A DNA stretch of 11,814 nucleotides from a virus. Shown here in pieces: positions 2,341-11,710 of this stretch; position 1 is the stretch's first letter, and each line of letters opens with the position of its first letter. The notes under the pieces are model-generated. The model searched no databases and was not told the origin of the DNA. It saw only the letters and a list, made by a program, of their open reading frames with translations. The stretch lies in UHGV virus genome UHGV-0249779, one strand, 5' to 3'. A program made the position numbers and the translations under genes.

Positions 2341-2541
2341 AACTAAGCCGCCTCGTTGAAGCGACTGAGGTATGAGGTGTTGAGTTGATTTCAGCTGGTC
2401 ACACCGACGTTCACACGTCCGTTTCACCCCTCGCACTCCCCGTAGCCTGCTGAAATTCAAGCTGCAGATCTAAGCGGTCATCGCAACGGTGAAGCGGTAA
2501 ATCAGAAGATTGCCGGATTCCTGTGCCGTTGTGATGGATTT

Positions 2542-2570
2542 ATAATACTTATTGCTATTAATCATATCAA
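2542..2570 (-). promoter_or_regulatory. Putative PL promoter with embedded OL operator
   Basis: Minus strand reads -35 TTGATA (2570..2565), a 17-nt spacer, then -10 TATTAT (2547..2542). The spacer TTAATAGCAAT closely resembles the PR spacer TTAATGCGCATT at 3995..4006. Confidence 0.5.
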
Positions 2571-2785
2571 TACGTATGGGTATAAATCGATAGCATTTGT
2601 TGTTATGCTGTTGATACTGAAAAGAATTTAATGTTGAGGTTTTTTGTGACATTCGACTCAAAATGGATTTTGCAATTAAATAACCAATTGATAACAATGA
2701 AAACATCACGGAGAACTAGATAGGCCAAATTACTTGCCACGAAGATAGTTGTAAGCGTTGATAACAATGGTATTGAGGAGGGATA

Positions 2786-2808
2786 CCCCCGACAATTGCG
2801 TCAGGGGG
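2786..2808 (-). terminator. GC-rich stem-loop immediately 3' of the lipoprotein gene (possible terminator or RNA-stabilising hairpin for the cI-lipoprotein transcript)
   Basis: CCCCCGAC-aattgc-GTCAGGGGG inverted repeat with one bulge. No clear U-tract on the minus strand, hence low confidence. Confidence 0.3.
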
Positions 2809-2814
2809 GAGGGA

Positions 2815-3195
2815 TTATTGGGCTTTAATGTAATTTTTCAACTTTGCAGTTTGCTCTACAGCGCTAGGAATGCATCCAAACATATTTGCGCATGAGGTTT
2901 GAACAACAATTTCGTTCTTATCGTTTCCTAAAGGTGTTTTTACAACCTGATATCCAAGCACGGCACTATTTCCAATAGGAGTGTATGTGGAAATTACCGT
3001 TTCATCTGCCATCTGAATTTTCCAACCAGAATTCATTGCTATCCAAGCTTTGGCTCTCGACCAATATGTATCGCATTGCTCTTTACCTTGACAGTAAACT
3101 GGTTGTTGAGCTTGTGCGGCAATTTGGGGATCTATTTTCTGAGCACATCCAGAGATGCTAATCAGAATAGCTGCTGTAACGAATAGTTTTCTCAT
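2815..3195 (-). CDS. Putative lipoprotein of unknown function, immediately downstream of and co-oriented with cI (rex-position moron)
   Basis: Starts MRKLFVTAAILISISGC: a signal peptide with lipobox ISGC. AAGGA lies 7 nt upstream of the ATG at 3195; the ATG at 3201 has too short a spacer. The gene is AT-rich relative to its phage neighbours. The 41-bp gap to the cI stop suggests co-transcription from PRM. Confidence 0.7.
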   Translation of the reverse strand: MRKLFVTAAILISISGCAQKIDPQIAAQAQQPVYCQGKEQCDTYWSRAKAWIAMNSGWKIQMADETVISTYTPIGNSAVLGYQVVKTPLGNDKNEIVVQTSCANMFGCIPSAVEQTAKLKNYIKAQ

Positions 3196-3242
3196 TGACA
3201 TTTCCTTTGTTTTGAATATACAACAAATAAATTGGCAAAAAA

Positions 3243-3935
3243 TTATCCGTGTTTTCTATATGTCTGCGGCATGCTTCCAATGACTTTACCGAAGATGAAC
3301 ACCCGGTTCATCTCGTCTTTCTCGATCGGGTCCCACGGTGAGTAGCTCTTGTTATCAGAGATAACCAGCAGCTTATCCTTCATCATTTGCAGGCGCTTTA
3401 CATGGGCTGTGTCGTCGTACAGAAACGCATAGATACCATCACCGTCGAAAGATTTAACAGTGATATCAACGAACAAAAGATCACCTGGTTCGATCGTTCC
3501 TGACATGCTGTCACCGCGTACGTTAATGATGCGGATATTTTCTGCCTTCCTGCCATCGAACATGTGACGAGCATCGTCAAACGAGTACTCAACCGAGCGT
3601 AGAACTTCTACAAACTCACGATTGATGACACCCGGCCCGGCACTGACTTCTATATCAAGAACGTCAATCTTGAAGTATTTGGAATGGCTGACAGCAGGCT
3701 TCCCTGATTGTTGACCGTCATTTCTCATCGGGCCTATGCCTGATGAGAGCCACTCTGTTCGAACACCCAATGCATTAGCTATTTCAACAATTTTTGTTGA
3801 GCCGCGCGCGTTGCCGCTTGTCAGTCTCCAGATTGTGGGTTGAGCTACGCCAGACGCCTTTGCAAGAGCGCCTTGAGACATTCCAGATTGTTCCATCGCT
3901 AGGTTTAAGCGATCAGCAAGAGTTTCTTTTTTCAT
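3243..3935 (-). CDS. cI: CI-type prophage repressor (N-terminal HTH, C-terminal LexA-like S24 autopeptidase domain)
   Basis: HTH-like segment MSQGALAKASGVAQPTIWRL. C-terminal domain carries the GDSM serine motif and a downstream lysine (HVKRL), typical of S24 self-cleaving repressors. The ATG at 3935 is preferred over the TTG at 3971. A TATAAAT -10 sits 8 nt upstream of the ATG, consistent with a leaderless PRM transcript as in lambda. Confidence 0.85.
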   Translation of the reverse strand: MKKETLADRLNLAMEQSGMSQGALAKASGVAQPTIWRLTSGNARGSTKIVEIANALGVRTEWLSSGIGPMRNDGQQSGKPAVSHSKYFKIDVLDIEVSAGPGVINREFVEVLRSVEYSFDDARHMFDGRKAENIRIINVRGDSMSGTIEPGDLLFVDITVKSFDGDGIYAFLYDDTAHVKRLQMMKDKLLVISDNKSYSPWDPIEKDEMNRVFIFGKVIGSMPQTYRKHG

Positions 3936-4045
3936 AAGTTTTAATTTATACGCTTGCGTATTGATGGTCAAAACACGTTTTGCTATTGATTGGGTTAATG
4001 CGCATTGCTATTATCTATTCATTGTAATACCAATAGGAATTGATA
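3936..4045. promoter_or_regulatory. Divergent immunity control region (OR operators, PR and PRM)
   Basis: PR candidate on the plus strand: -35 TTGATT (3986..3991), 17-nt spacer, -10 TATTAT (4009..4014). Three palindromes: TACGCttGCGTA (3949..3960), CAAAACacGTTTTG (3969..3982) and the perfect AATGCGCATT (3997..4006) inside the PR spacer. PRM -10 TATAAAT lies on the minus strand at 3950..3944. Confidence 0.6.
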
Positions 4046-4273
4046 ATGACAAATCAAACCATTCAACTCGCAATCAGTATTACAGGTAGTCAAAAACGAC
4101 TGGCAGATCTCTGCGGTGTAGCCCAACCCACGGTTTGGCGTTGGCTACACGGTGGCGGAATTGATGCCCGCTATGTAATGAAAATTGTCTCAGCCACTGG
4201 TGGAAAGATTAAACCAGCAGATATTCGTCCCGACCTCGCACCATTGTTTAACGTGAGTAATTCTTCCGCCTAA
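4046..4273 (+). CDS. cro: Cro-like HTH regulator (YdaS/DUF1019-like)
   Basis: 75 aa from the ATG at 4046, with AGGAA 8 nt upstream; the track's 4040 start is a TTG. The pattern QKRLADLCGVAQPTVWRW...ATGGKIKPADIRPDL resembles YdaS-type Cro proteins. First gene rightward of PR. Confidence 0.75.
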   Translation: MTNQTIQLAISITGSQKRLADLCGVAQPTVWRWLHGGGIDARYVMKIVSATGGKIKPADIRPDLAPLFNVSNSSA

Positions 4274-6838: not shown

Positions 6839-7014
6839 CATCGAAGGCCTATTGTTTTCGACAGGAGGCCATCGAAATGACACTATGGTACCGTCTTTAC
6901 CCACCGCCTTCTGCTAAGTTTAGGAATACAAGATGTTGCTGCCGTTAAAAAATAGTCGTAATTTCTATTAGAATTTGGGCAATATAACCAGCACATAGAT
7001 AAGGGAGTCGTTTT

Positions 7015-7263
7015 ATGCACGAACTATTTGTGCTGGTTTTGAGCACCTGTGCTAGCCTCAGCAATATGTCAGGTTGTTCAGTGGAAGTAGTGAATGTCAA
7101 CACCACAAAAGAGCCGGTAAACGTCTTTTATAGCAGGAAAGACTGCGAAGAAAGCATGAAAAACATTATGCTAAATCATGCTCTATACCATGAAGTATCA
7201 GGCAGAGAGCCATATATGGCAAAGTGCGAACAAGTATTTGTCTCAAAAAGTTTAATGAAATAA
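7015..7263 (+). CDS. Hypothetical small protein (82 aa), first gene of an AT-rich insertion
   Basis: AAGGGAG lies 7 nt upstream of the ATG. Low GC by eye compared with flanking ren and ybcN. Cysteine-containing with a hydrophobic N-terminus; no family recognised. Confidence 0.5.
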   Translation: MHELFVLVLSTCASLSNMSGCSVEVVNVNTTKEPVNVFYSRKDCEESMKNIMLNHALYHEVSGREPYMAKCEQVFVSKSLMK

Positions 7264-7306
7264 TTGGCCAAAAACGACATATAACAAAATCTTATAGGAG
7301 CTTAAC

Positions 7307-7588
7307 GTGGAAGATTACTTAGTTTTTGGTTTAGGTCATGAAGGCGATATAAAGAACGATGAAGCAGGGCTTGATAAGATAAGCGTGGTAACGAAATCGG
7401 TAGTGCGTTCTACCAATTCCAATGAACCAGTGGTTTACCAAGTGACTGAGTTTAAAGAATTTAATGTTGTGAGACATCAAGCGTTTGATAGTGAATACTA
7501 CAACATAGCATTCGATGTCTTACCATCCCGCGTCCGTATTGATGCTGCAATCCGTAAATATCACCCCAAGAAATCCTCCTCAGCTTAG
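7307..7588 (+). CDS. Hypothetical small protein (93 aa), second gene of the AT-rich insertion
   Basis: GTG start with TAGGAG 6 nt upstream. Same AT-rich composition and orientation as the 82-aa ORF, 43 bp downstream of it. No family recognised. Confidence 0.45.
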   Translation: MEDYLVFGLGHEGDIKNDEAGLDKISVVTKSVVRSTNSNEPVVYQVTEFKEFNVVRHQAFDSEYYNIAFDVLPSRVRIDAAIRKYHPKKSSSA

Positions 7589-7776
7589 TAAGCTTTGATT
7601 TTCCATTATCAACCAGCAATAATAATGTCCTCGGAGCCTGAACAACTCCGGTGACTTCTGCGCTAAACGGGGACGTTTATGCGCACATACAATCCAAACT
7701 CTCTTCTCCCTTCACTGATGCAGAAATGCACCTGCAATTCTTTGCATCTAGCGTTTGACCTCTGCGGAGGTGAAGC

Positions 7777-9181: not shown

Positions 9182-9266
9182 AGTCAGAGATAACAATCAA
9201 CTAATACTGTTTTGTTGATTTTTGCTTGTAATTGGCGTTTTGGTCTGATTTTTGTGGAGTAAGTTG

Positions 9267-9650
9267 ATGCGTGATATTCAGATGGTTCTTGAGCGTTGGG
9301 GAGCGTGGGCGGCTAATAATCATGAAGATGTGACCTGGTCGTCCATTGCCGCCGGTTTTAAGGGATTAATTCCTTCAAAAGTAAAATCTCGCCCGCAATG
9401 TTGTGACGATGACGCGATGATCATTTGCGGGTGCATGGCCCGTCTGAAAAAGAACAACAGCGATTTGCACGATTTATTAGTAGATTATTATATAGTCGGT
9501 ATGACATTCATGTCACTGGCAGGTAAGCATTGCTGCTCTGATGGTTATATCGGGAAAAGGTTACAAAAGGCTGAGGGCATAATTGAAGGGATGTTAATGG
9601 CATTAGATATCCGGTTAGAGATGGATATCGTTGTTAATAACTCTAATTAA
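9267..9650 (+). CDS. quuD: Late-gene antiterminator Q (QuuD/phage-82/21 type)
   Basis: 127 aa from ATG 9267, with GGAG 7 nt upstream: [21 protein letters not shown]...[20 protein letters not shown]..., matching DLP12 QuuD from recall. The track start at 9252 is a TTG. Confidence 0.85.
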
Positions 9651-9669
9651 TACGCCAATTATTTACTAA

Positions 9670-9701
9670 AAGTTATTAAAAATGGGGCGTTGAAACGCCC
9701 C
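9670..9701 (-). terminator. Rho-independent terminator for the porin transcript
   Basis: Hairpin GGGGCGT-tgaa-ACGCCCC (9684..9701), followed on the minus strand by ATTTTTAATAAC. Confidence 0.5.
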
Positions 9702-9724
9702 CAAAAATAAAGGGTAATATATAA
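9690..9724 (+). promoter_or_regulatory. Candidate late promoter PR' (Q-utilisation region)
   Basis: -35-like TTGAAA (9690..9695) with -10-like GGTAAT/TAATAT/TATATA candidates at 9713..9724, 17-19 nt downstream. Placement directly 3' of Q follows the lambdoid pattern. Sequence-only inference. Confidence 0.3.
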
Positions 9725-9789
9725 CAGAAGGTTTATATAGTTAGAAGCAAGGTTGTGCTTCTAAAGGAAGTGGCTTGAGGGAGCCACTT

Positions 9790-9830
9790 ATATGTTGGGG
9801 AGGCAAAGCCTCCCACAACATATCTTTTAG
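9790..9830 (+). terminator. Candidate tR'-like terminator (long hairpin plus CTTTT)
   Basis: 15/16-bp imperfect inverted repeat ATATGTTGGGGAGGC-aaa-GCCTCCCACAACATAT (9790..9823) followed by CTTTTAG. Preceded by two further hairpins at 9743..9762 and 9768..9789. Confidence 0.4.
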
Positions 9831-9838
9831 TAATCAAA

Positions 9839-10921
9839 TTAGAACTGGTAAACCATACCTACAGCAACGATATCATCGGTAGCAACGCCAGATGCTTTCG
9901 TGAAATCGCTCTTATCAATCAGGTTGATTTTGTAGTCAACAAAAGTGGACATATTTTTGTTGAAGTAATAGGTTGCACCTACATCAACATATTCAACCAG
10001 GTCCTGATCACCCCAAACACCCAAGTCTTTTCCTTTAGAATGCAGGTAAGCAACGGATGGACGCAGGCCGAAGTCGAACTGATATTGTGCAACAGCTTCG
10101 AAGTTTTGTGCTTTGTTGGCAATATGGTTATTACCAAAAACAGTCATGTTCTGGGTTTCAGAATAGGTGGTGGCCAGATAGATGTTGTTCGCATCATATT
10201 TCAGACCAGCTGCCCATACTTCAGCATTTTGACCAGAAGCATTCAGACCGTTGTTACCGTAGATAACCTGATTATTAGTGCGATCAGATTTAGCATAGGT
10301 TGCACCCACGCCGAATCCTTCATACTCATAAGTAGTTGAGAAACCGAAACCATCGCCATTAGCTTCAGTTACTTCATTTCGGTCATTTTTGCCCTGATAC
10401 TGAGCTGCAAAGTTCAGGCCATCAACCAGACCAAAGAAGTCGTTGTTACGATAAGTTGCAACACCTGTGGTGCGACCAGTCATGAATACATCTGTTTGGG
10501 TCCAGGTATCGCCACCGAATTCTGGCAGAACGTCGGTCCATGCACCGATGTCGTATGCTACACCGTAGTTACGGCCGTAATCGATGGAGCCGTAGTCACC
10601 GAATTTCAGGCCAGCGAAGGCAAGACGGGTTTTATCTTTGGAGGAACCTTGAGATTCAGCGCGGTTGCCTTTGAATTCATATTCCCACTGACCGAAACCA
10701 GTCAGTTGATCGTTGATTTGGGTTTCACCTTTGAAGCCAAGACGGGCATAAGTAGTATCACCATCATCTGCATCATTAGAGGAGAAGTAGTGCTTAGCAT
10801 TAACTTTCCCGTACAGATCCAGCTTGTTACTGTCTTTATTATAAATTTCAGCTGCCTGAGCAGACATCGCCATCAGTACTGATGCAGCTACAGCAGAAAT
10901 TGCCACTGTTAATTTTTTCAT
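9839..10921 (-). CDS. nmpC: Outer-membrane general porin of the OmpC/OmpF family, prophage-borne (NmpC/Lc type), apparently intact
   Basis: 360 aa. Signal peptide [23 protein letters not shown] followed by AEIYNKD...; C-terminal ...VGMVYQF with terminal Phe; a beta-barrel-like alternating aromatic/Gly composition. Location between Q and the holin, antisense, matches DLP12 nmpC and the PA-2 lc gene. Confidence 0.9.
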
Positions 10922-11349
10922 CGTGAGCCCTTTTTTTTGAACTATTATTAAAAAATGATGTCACTGCGCGATAAATATTCATCTAATCAATGTGATTATT
11001 TCAAGATGTAAGTTTTGGTTTCTCGTTTGATTTGTGAAGTAGATCTCTATTTTTATCTGAACTTTTTTCTATCGAATCCTATTCATAGCTCTTGGCTGAA
11101 TAAAAATAAATCTATTAGCCAATTTATATTAACGGCTGTTATTTATAAGTGCTCTATAATTTGAAGGTTCAATTTAAATCGGCTAAAAATAACACTGGAA
11201 ATTATTTGTTGGTTATTTGTTGAGGTTTTCTTATGTATTTGTGGTGGTGTTTTGAACACTCGGTAGCATTCTCGCAAATATCATTTAGTGGTTTACGTAC
11301 GTAAAAAATTGGTTATGCTGTTAAGAGTGGTTACTTCGTCACACAGCTT
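10922..11349. promoter_or_regulatory. Long AT-rich regulatory region upstream of the porin gene (porin promoter and 5' UTR, unresolved)
   Basis: A non-coding tract of more than 400 bp, strongly AT-rich with many A/T runs, immediately 5' of the porin start. No specific promoter hexamers could be assigned with confidence. Confidence 0.4.
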
Positions 11350-11382
11350 AAACCCGCCGTAGAGCGGGTTTTTCCATTTTTT
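11350..11382 (+). terminator. Rho-independent terminator-like hairpin about 110 bp upstream of the holin gene
   Basis: AAACCCGC-cgtaga-GCGGGTTT followed by TTCCATTTTTT on the plus strand. Confidence 0.55.
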
Positions 11383-11494
11383 GAGTCTCGATATTAGCTG
11401 ATAACCCAATACCTGAGTTATTCACTGACTCCGAGTCTGTTACGTTTCGTAGTATTCCCTCAATTTACACCCGCTTTGTCTGCGAGGTGGGGTT

Positions 11495-11710
11495 ATGAAA
11501 TCCATGGATAAGTTAACAACGGGTGTCGCCTATGGCACCTCAGCAGGTAGTGCCGGGTACTGGTTTTTACAGCTGCTAGATAAAGTCACGCCCTCACAGT
11601 GGGCGGCAATTGGAGTGCTGGGTAGCCTGGTATTTGGCCTGCTGACGTACCTGACAAACCTTTATTTCAAGATTAAAGAAGACAAGCGTAAGGCTGCACG
11701 GGGAGAGTAA
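11495..11710 (+). CDS. essD: Class II holin of the phage 21 S type (pinholin, EssD-like), with dual start
   Basis: 71 aa, [26 protein letters not shown]...[33 protein letters not shown], matching S21/EssD from recall. Met1 and Met4 give the 71-aa and 68-aa products. GAGGTGGGG upstream of the ATG. Confidence 0.9.

Follow-up and report, generated by a model that had tools for sequence, protein, structure and literature searches.

The viral genome UHGV-0249779 includes a stretch of 11,814 nucleotides (hereafter the window) that is the early region of an Escherichia coli lambdoid prophage. Behind its cI-type repressor gene, in the slot that holds rexA-rexB in lambda, lies a gene for a small predicted lipoprotein of 126 amino acids (aa). 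This gene is a horizontally acquired one-gene cassette with a foreign composition, and its product is a member of phrog_16082 and of a larger, uncurated family defined here, for which no curated model exists. The gene behaves as an autonomous one-gene function that many kinds of mobile elements carry. On the reading with the best support, the product would be an envelope-level exclusion or protection factor of the lysogen, acting as Llp does on FhuA or Rtp45 on LptD; to this reading we would assign a probability of roughly 0.45.

A one-gene cassette in the rexAB slot

A megablast search of 50,697 phage genomes recovered ten lambdoid phages that share the cI-cro region of the window (PhiR68_2, Lambda_4C10, 4A7, Perceval and others), and every one of these same-immunity matches ends at the cI stop codon. 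A more sensitive blastn comparison places the boundaries of the swapped segment precisely: identity stands at 95% up to position 2636 and returns to 96–97% from 3244/3245 onward (Table 1). Beyond the left boundary, palindromic elements at 2534-2591 recur in the cI/cro intergenic region (22 nucleotides (nt) at 86% and 18 nt at 83% identity), and this cluster is read as the leftward operator and promoter (OL/PL). As the lipoprotein gene sits between the cI stop codon and OL/PL, it occupies the lambda rexA-rexB slot, in keeping with the initial annotation, which had assigned it there and regarded the slot as a hotspot for exclusion or defense cargo expressed in lysogens. The slot is variable. The gene is co-oriented with the repressor, and phages of the same immunity type carry other, two-gene cargo at the equivalent place. 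In PhiR68_2 (L001 2450-3905; L numbers denote the loci compared here) this is an uncharacterized pair of 341 and 149 aa with no Pfam or PADLOC match, in a slot prone to hold defense genes. In Lambda_4C10 and 4A7 (L002 2503-3919) it is a pair of 353 and 125 aa that corresponds to PDC-M11A/B, a PADLOC candidate defense system (E 3e-133 and 7e-52 in Lambda_4C10), of which PDC-M11B is an ASCH domain protein. The repressor-to-N interval of lambdoid prophages has been described as a mosaic site of accessory genes, e.g., rexAB or the bstA gene driven by the cI promoter (PMC7067206).

The gene was noted at the outset as AT-rich, and it has a GC content of 39% with 0.30 at third codon positions, as against third-position values of 0.49 for cI and 0.59 for bet, and flanks of about 50% GC. 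Its distribution is sparse: the cI type is present in 2,209 of 5,426 complete E. coli genomes (full length in 719), whereas the lipoprotein cassette occurs in only 12 of the 5,426. The cassette is carried by prophages or their remnants, integrated at icd and at the attachment site of lambda. For instance, E. coli 504239 (L005, at icd) and EC20-72C-1 (L030, at ybhC/bioA) bear the same cassette at two different attachment sites. Both of these prophages look defective: the integrase is interrupted, the late region rearranged or truncated, and the stretches viewed contain no structural genes. Still retained are the recombination genes and int-xis, together with the immunity region and the lipoprotein gene.

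The cassette ends in a 3' tail. Two open reading frames (ORFs) that reach into it on the minus strand, 2470-2709 and 2603-2767, have no RefSeq annotation, and the former also has no family match in Pfam, PHROGs and PADLOC scans, for which reasons both are treated as non-coding. Scans of the window and the cassette for Rfam families (at the gathering threshold and at E <= 1) and tRNAs returned no match, so that the 178-bp tail is not a known RNA. Within the tail (2637-2814) there is an exact 12-nt direct repeat, TTGATAACAATG, at 2688-2699 and 2758-2769, the copies being 70 bp apart; the right copy also falls within a 17-nt inverted match to 3455-3471 in cI. The repeat has no evident function and may be due to chance.

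The encoded lipoprotein and its family

The longest form of the ORF, read from the first ATG, has 128 aa and spans 2815-3201 (minus strand); its N-terminus reads MSMRKLFVTAAILISISGC followed by AQK. The Shine-Dalgarno sequence AAGGA (3203-3207) lies 7 nt from the ATG at 3195 and 1 nt from that at 3201. The RefSeq protein WP_001228516.1 ('hypothetical protein', same coordinates in E. coli 504239) is the 126-aa form, and all homologues start with M-[RNK]-K. On the strength of the Shine-Dalgarno spacing, the RefSeq form and the homologous N-termini, the second ATG (3195) is very probably the true start. The gap of 41 bp to the co-oriented cI gene given by the initial annotation is exact for the first ATG and becomes 47 bp from the likely start.

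The lipobox ISGC, the length of about 126 aa and the several cysteines of the mature part, all listed by the initial annotation, can be read directly from the sequence. The N-terminus has the makeup of a lipoprotein signal peptide, MRK-LFVTAAILIS-ISGC, with a charged n-region, an h-region and a lipobox of the form [LVI][ASTVI][GAS]C; the signal-peptide region is of low confidence in the structure models. The mature part has four further cysteines besides that of the lipobox. In E. coli, an Ala rather than an Asp at position +2 predicts sorting to the outer membrane by the Lol rule, and the product would thus be expected to be lipidated and sorted to the outer membrane.

Searches of curated resources for the lipoprotein were largely empty. 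Pfam has no model for it (the sole match at E <= 0.1 is a spurious one to TM_HPP, E 0.031), nor has NCBIfam, nor PADLOC-DB v2 (just AbiEi at a noise-level E of 0.033), and PDB sequences searched with a profile yielded no match at E <= 10. The earlier statement that the protein belongs to no recognizable family stands for these four resources and fails for PHROGs, where phrog_16082, a family of unknown function, matches at E 1.1e-67 (residues 3-128 on profile positions 1-129 of 130), with phrog_4186, also of unknown function, as a more distant match. A literature search by RefSeq accessions found no paper, and neither a paper nor a database name for the protein was found.

The reach of the family depends strongly on the depth of the search. 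A word-indexed protein search yields eight close relatives, in E. coli, Salmonella and Hafnia, whereas an exhaustive profile search yields 1,079 representatives of 50%-identity clusters at E <= 1e-3, with 399 at E <= 1e-10. These are mostly proteins of 125-135 aa from Gamma-, Beta- and Alphaproteobacteria as well as from metagenome-assembled genomes (MAGs) of Acidobacteriota and Binatia. Across 72 diverse members the lipobox Cys and Cys35, Cys41, Cys102 and Cys108 (numbering of the 126-aa form), along with Trp45, Ala48, Trp51 and Thr70, are invariant or nearly so, and the motifs NSxWKIQ and CxNxFGCxP (CxNMFGCxP in the window protein) are conserved. Scans of the same 72 members with Pfam and NCBIfam models found no model for the family domain itself. 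They revealed a C-terminal PDZ domain of the DegP/DegQ/DegS type in 8 of the 72, and single weak matches to DUF6491 and to the Sbal_3080/BPTD_2524 lipoprotein families (E about 1e-3). PDZ-fused forms also occur at L041 and L047, in tail modules. These fusions point to a periplasmic location of the family domain and to a peptide or protein partner.

Purifying selection on the mature domain is strong. In comparison with the 83%-identical genes of L008 and L009, the proportion of non-synonymous differences per site (pN) is 0.046-0.049 and that of synonymous differences (pS) is 0.72-0.89. Between L008 and L009, whose genes lie behind different repressors, there are 22 synonymous changes and 0 non-synonymous ones. 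With pN so far below pS, this is a real gene and not a chance ORF. The AlphaFold model has a mean predicted local distance difference test score (pLDDT) of 89, rising above 92 over the mature part, which is confidently predicted to adopt a generic helix-grip fold. Two disulfides probably stabilize this 109-residue mature domain. Profile searches and structure prediction had been proposed from the start as checks on the protein, and through them the protein was assigned to no curated family.

Recurrent contexts and predicted expression with the repressor

The genomic contexts of the family were drawn from about 35 loci. At five of these, namely the window, L008, L009, L015 and L027, the family gene lies downstream of and co-oriented with a repressor gene that is itself divergent from a cro-like gene. 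The lipoproteins at L008 and L009 are 83% identical to that of the window, those at L015 and L027 only 39% and 40%. The repressors at four of the five loci are verified helix-turn-helix (HTH) and S24 proteins that are no more than 25% identical to one another, whereas that of L027, a cI-type-looking HTH ORF without a Pfam match, is counted as unverified. The gap between repressor and lipoprotein genes ranges from 34 to 120 bp, with a Shine-Dalgarno sequence at each locus and a canonical terminator at none, and at L008, L009 and L027 a terminator-like hairpin with a T-run comes straight after the lipoprotein gene. This pattern is that of a repressor-plus-cargo operon, reinvented or retained over more than 60% protein divergence.

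In the window itself, the lipoprotein is most likely expressed in the lysogen by co-transcription with cI from the maintenance promoter. A scan of the minus strand between cI and the lipoprotein gene found no terminator-like site, and a scan of the spacer and the 3' end of cI found no promoter-like site. A pair of elements picked out by eye as a separate promoter, TTGCCA and TATATT, was rejected, being only 11-12 nt apart and hence too close. As there is neither a terminator nor a convincing separate promoter, and as the repressor-lipoprotein arrangement recurs elsewhere, expression in the lysogen is the natural prediction. The lambda cI message is leaderless. The maintenance-type (PRM-like) promoter of the window, going by its consensus match, would start transcription at about the cI ATG (3935) and might similarly give a leaderless cI message; promoter consensus matches occur at chance frequency, so that this is only suggestive. 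The hairpin just past the lipoprotein stop codon (Table 1) could be a weak terminator or a 3' stabilizer of the cI-lipoprotein transcript. The comparative evidence from the repressor loci outweighs such expression signals read from a single sequence.

Beyond the repressor loci, the family is found in early or immunity regions, in nin regions, in tail modules and on elements that are not phages. In the first of these settings, the gene at L028 lies 4 bp behind a second small lipoprotein gene and that at L044 about 1 kb from an S24 repressor; members in nin regions follow a hok-like gene or lie near RusA. In an Atlantibacter tail module the family gene is between a gpK/L-type gene (phrog_30) and gpI (phrog_32). 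In Pseudomonas tail modules it is downstream of a gpK/L-type gene (L045) or upstream of gpI (L046), at L011 and L013 upstream of gpI and J (phrog_31), and in Pantoea in a remnant of a tail module. A 54.5-kb Klebsiella plasmid with tail genes has it upstream of a tail-assembly gene and a very large carbohydrate-binding tail gene. At L010 it is directly upstream of the tape-measure gene, and at L019 beside an Mnt/Arc/antirepressor module inside the tail region. In small siphophages the locus next to the J-like hub houses receptor-binding proteins and exclusion factors (PMC11990801), and in HK97 it is the exclusion gene gp15 that precedes the tape-measure gene (PMC3594210).

A second, unrelated small lipoprotein gene often adjoins the family gene (L011 6377-6787, L013 6377-6724, L046 4424-4846, L028 5662-5997). 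It is downstream in the enterobacterial and Pseudomonas phage tail modules, with weak matches to DUF2846/DUF6491 (E 0.016-0.024), and upstream at L028. The two adjoining lipoproteins may work as a pair.

Among the elements other than phages, a homologue about 71% identical to the window protein, WP_032201349.1, is carried by ColRNAI (ColE1) plasmids of 2.5-8.6 kb from Citrobacter, Salmonella and Enterobacter. Its gene is followed by a terminator-like hairpin with a T-run and is practically the sole cargo of the smallest plasmid. These plasmids (L049-L052) are NZ_CP141253.1, NZ_CP091549.1, NZ_CP073046.1 and NZ_CP056713.1, the smallest of them 2,519 bp in size, and in them the gene converges with a conserved ORF of 69 aa (MTKFEAFKDQ...) that matches nothing in Pfam; NZ_CP073046.1, which has the homologue twice, appears to be a head-to-tail dimer. 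On the Shewanella decolorationis plasmid pNi1-3 (L053 4599-6291) the family gene is the first beside an integron integrase, i.e., a gene cassette by position, and the PDZ-fused forms adjoin integrases or primases in islands. A different arrangement is seen in two Caballeronia udeis genomes and in Candidatus Burkholderia crenata (L039, L042, L043), where a longer member (186-245 aa), extended at the C-terminus by a part without a Pfam match, lies beside glutamate-cysteine ligase; this form is apparently a version of the domain that belongs to the chromosome and is inherited vertically. The surroundings of several other loci are uninformative.

Comparison with known systems

RexAB of lambda is an abortive-infection system of two proteins, active at the inner membrane and in the cytoplasm. 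The window gene specifies instead a single exported lipoprotein, with no Rex match in Pfam, PHROGs or PADLOC. What it has in common with rexA-rexB is the slot, the co-orientation with cI and the predicted lysogen expression from the maintenance promoter (PMC7067206). The bstA gene of phage BTP1 follows its repressor gene and is driven by the cI promoter (PMC7067206); the product acts in abortive infection in the cytoplasm and is not homologous to the family.

In kind, the protein resembles the known exclusion lipoproteins as well as the cargo of the rexAB slot. Llp of T5, which blocks FhuA, and Rtp45, which blocks LptD, are small, lipid-anchored, disulfide-bearing phage proteins whose action is exerted at the outer membrane from its periplasmic face (PMC12685063). 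The window protein has neither sequence nor fold similarity to them. Members of its family sit beside tail-tip and host-specificity genes, as do exclusion genes of siphophages (PMC11990801). Cor (phages phi80, HK022, N15 and T1) is an accessory lipoprotein encoded in or near the tail genes of temperate siphophages that inactivates FhuA and also protects against colicin M (PMC3594210). The match to its family here (phrog_1119, E 0.06) covers residues 3-31, i.e., the signal peptide only, and there is no homology in the mature protein. HK97 gp15, encoded between the tail chaperone and tape-measure genes, also excludes phages (PMC3594210). L010 shares its position before the tape-measure gene, whereas gp15 itself is an inner-membrane, YebO-like protein that is not homologous to the family. 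In mEpimmI phages, the structural-cluster lipoproteins Lpp021 and Lpp010 exclude OmpA- or LamB-using phages when expressed from a plasmid (PMC11893012). A tblastn search with the window protein against the 50,697 phage records, in which the inclusion of the mEp genomes is unconfirmed, found only vB_EcoM-606R7 and vB_EcoS-689R5, at 44-45% identity.

Two other classes of phage lipoproteins can be set apart. The Rz1-type o-spanins do not fit, because the gene is about 8 kb from the holin, and the product has 126 aa, is folded rather than proline-rich and has no spanin PHROG match. The Bor/Iss family is common to phages and plasmids, with bor lying near the lysis genes. The window protein has no Lambda_Bor match, its gene is in a different slot, and many carriers of its family are environmental. 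In lambda, Bor is an accessory outer-membrane lipoprotein expressed by the lysogen (PMC7067206). The sequence and fold tests thus uphold the initial judgment that the protein is not Bor, Cor, Llp or Rz1; its predicted fold is unlike those of Cor, Llp, Rtp45 and Bor.

The structural neighbors of the model are Flpp3 (DUF3568) and the N-terminal domain of BamC, with sequence identities of 12-14% and no Pfam match to DUF3568 or BamC. Since eukaryotic KA1 domains score equally well, this likeness is one of fold only. The family differs from the known exclusion lipoproteins in having an unrelated, larger fold and a far wider distribution.

Proposed function and alternatives

The positions of the family, wired to a repressor on one hand and adjacent to tail-tip genes on the other, are those typical of genes that change how susceptible a host is to other phages. 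The most likely role of the window protein is protection of the lysogen at the envelope. In the lysogen the cassette gene is most likely transcribed with cI from the maintenance promoter, and the prelipoprotein product would present its compact, 109-residue helix-grip domain to the periplasm. There the domain would bind a conserved envelope component within periplasmic reach, e.g., the periplasmic face of a receptor complex formed by an outer-membrane protein that phages or bacteriocins use. Binding would stop adsorption or genome entry, resulting in superinfection exclusion. Given that the motifs are conserved across phyla and the selection is purifying, the partner is more likely to be a conserved envelope machine or an enzyme of the invader than a lineage-specific receptor; the family is spread over several phyla, which speaks against a narrow receptor of the FhuA or LamB sort. 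Cor also protects against colicins, and such protection would explain carriage on small ColE1 plasmids. In a bolder form, which we put forward tentatively and consider distinctly less probable than the exclusion role as such, the window protein would be the first recognized member of a widespread family of single-gene envelope shields. These would be borne by phages, plasmids, integrons and islands, sometimes extended by PDZ domains, and would bind, from the periplasmic side, a conserved outer-membrane machine, for example LptDE or Bam, or a conserved enzyme of the invader, so that hosts throughout the Proteobacteria would be protected from entire classes of phages or bacteriocins.

The foremost alternative is that of a periplasmic inhibitor or immunity protein against an envelope-attacking enzyme, with a disulfide-closed loop entering the active site. 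Its target might be a peptidoglycan hydrolase that a superinfecting phage injects or bears on its tail, an amidase effector of a type VI system, or one of the bacteriocins, e.g., colicin M or pesticin. There are precedents for such inhibition: T4 Sp reportedly neutralizes the gp5 lysozyme, and Ivy inhibits by means of its CKPHDC loop. The two C-x5-C motifs of the family, among whose best conserved stretches is C-x-N-M-F-G-C-x-P, would provide loops of this type, and conservation across phyla under purifying selection suits a conserved catalytic target. Small ColE1 plasmids commonly carry bacteriocin immunity genes, and on such plasmids the family gene is stand-alone cargo; in several phages it adjoins a gpK-type tail gene that contains an NlpC/P60 domain. 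We regard this possibility as unlikely overall, at about one chance in five.

A lipoprotein of lysogenic conversion that serves host fitness or virulence by altering envelope properties (resistance to serum or complement, stress tolerance, adhesion), as with lambda Bor, plasmid Iss or TraT, is somewhat less probable still. No match to Lambda_Bor or to another Pfam family speaks for it, many carriers are environmental (Shewanella, Marinobacter, Caballeronia, Acidobacteriota MAGs), for which serum resistance is meaningless, and the repeated tail-tip and host-specificity neighbors are typical of exclusion rather than virulence genes.

Placement in late (tail) operons, seen for many members, might suggest a role in the lytic cycle, as a spanin-like part of lysis, a helper in tail assembly or a factor preventing readsorption to debris, in which case the gene would merely have come to lie behind cI. 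Cor and Llp are also thought to guard progeny from adsorbing to debris (PMC11990801), a variant that is mechanistically equal to the exclusion reading. Against a lytic role, the window has a separate lysis cassette with its own holin, the gene is dispensable, being missing from sister phages with the same backbone, and the family is present where there is no phage, on 2.5-kb plasmids and in an integron. Moreover, an exported, lipid-anchored protein could not be expected to join a virion assembled in the cytoplasm. A lytic role is hence very improbable. That the gene is an ORF without function in AT-rich filler DNA, decaying or there by chance, for which its bare annotation as a 'hypothetical protein' and the rarity of the cassette might be cited, is effectively refuted by the 1,079 clusters, the purifying selection, the confident fold and the near-invariant lipobox and four cysteines.

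Organization of the window

The features on which these readings depend, together with the neighboring genes, are collected in Table 1. Leftward of the cassette, a long TTG-initiated ORF (2050-2460) has an arginine-rich N-terminal extension preceding the part that is homologous to kil. In the interval of about 285 bp from the PL-like promoter to kil (2257-2541), an N-like antiterminator gene is not recognizable, and RefSeq annotates nothing there. Rightward, the Cro-like gene is followed by a YdaT-type cII-like gene, O, P, ren, the nin genes, a Q-like gene, a porin gene and a holin.

Table 1. Features of the window that bear on the lipoprotein gene, its expression and its surroundings (positions in the 11,814-nt stretch)
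Feature	Coordinates	Strand or direction	Description and basis
exo	210-890	leftward	
bet	887-1672	leftward	
gam	1678-1974	leftward	
kil	about 2050-2256	leftward	
OL/PL-like region	2534-2591		operator-like palindromes in common with OR, plus PL-like promoter; inside block conserved with same-immunity phages
PL-like promoter	-35 2570-2565, -10 2547-2542	minus	toward kil-gam-bet-exo; promoter scan (TTGATA-17-TATTAT, sigma-70-like)
Swapped cassette	2637-3243		607 bp, 38.4% GC; lipoprotein gene, 47-nt leader, 178-bp 3' tail; blastn against PhiR68_2 and Lambda_4C10
G+C-rich hairpin, 8 bp	2786-2807	minus	8 nt past stop; no U-tract; -15.6 kcal/mol, z -2.2
Lipoprotein coding sequence	2815-3195	minus	126 aa including signal peptide; TAA stop 2815-2817; ORF list, RefSeq, phrog_16082, purifying selection
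Mature domain	2818-3144	minus	residues 18-126; predicted helix-grip alpha/beta fold; AlphaFold and alignments
Lipobox I-S-G-C	3145-3156	minus	Cys17 (3145-3147) predicted lipidated first mature residue; Ala at +2
Signal peptide	3148-3195	minus	residues 1-16, MRK plus hydrophobic LFVTAAILISISG; read from sequence
Spacer, cI stop to lipoprotein start	3196-3242	minus	47 nt, AT-rich; Shine-Dalgarno at 3203-3207; weak fold, -3.8 kcal/mol
cI-type repressor	3243-3935	minus	230 aa; Pfam Peptidase_S24 (1.5e-18) and HTH_3; phrog_4; annotated cI in related phages
OR region with divergent promoters	3943-4014		promoter scan; repeats in common with 2543-2587
PRM-like promoter	-35 3971-3966, -10 3948-3943	minus	TTGACC-17-TAAATT; consensus match
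PR-like promoter	-35 3986-3991, -10 4009-4014	plus	consensus match
Cro-like (YdaS-type) regulator	4046-4273	plus	Pfam YdaS_toxin (1e-14) and P22_Cro; RefSeq coordinates; divergent from cI, defines switch
Q-like gene	9252-9650		
Holin	11495-11710		71 aa

Two other AT-rich parts of the window are observations in their own right. An island at 6900-7600 (GC 0.37-0.43), between ren and a ybcN-like gene, contains an 82-aa ORF (7015-7263, plus strand) whose N-terminus ends in a lipobox-like L-S-N-M-S-G-C and which has a weak PHROG match (E 0.016) and otherwise no family. It also contains a 93-aa ORF (7307-7588, plus strand) that belongs to phrog_16870, of unknown function (E 8e-63). This island may be a second slot for accessory genes, possibly with another small lipoprotein. 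Further rightward, an OmpC-like porin gene of 360 aa (9839-10921, minus strand) lies on the opposite strand between the Q-like gene and the holin, with very AT-rich flanks (9450-9840 and 10800-11400, GC down to 0.29). The equivalent gene of strain 504239 goes by the RefSeq name 'porin OmpC', and the porin of the window presumably resembles the phage-borne porin of the Lc/NmpC type. With the lipoprotein and the porin, the prophage may remodel the outer membrane in two ways.

Implications

Prophage genes coexpressed with the repressor are where lysogens keep functions that change their susceptibility to other phages. Attention has mostly been on cytoplasmic defense systems, and the exclusion lipoproteins that are understood, i.e., Cor, Llp and Rtp45, are tiny, phage-specific and found in few phages. 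The domain described here has been captured independently in several settings, namely after at least four unrelated repressors, next to tail-tip genes, and within 2.5-kb plasmids and an integron. Should its role be a housekeeping one in the envelope, this would still be an abundant, unannotated lipoprotein family with a confident structural model. Should it exclude phages or bacteriocins, it would be a common and easily transferable one-gene resistance determinant that current defense-finding tools have missed, which would matter for predicting host range in phage therapy, and its conserved target could expose a generally exploitable weak point of entry through the outer membrane.

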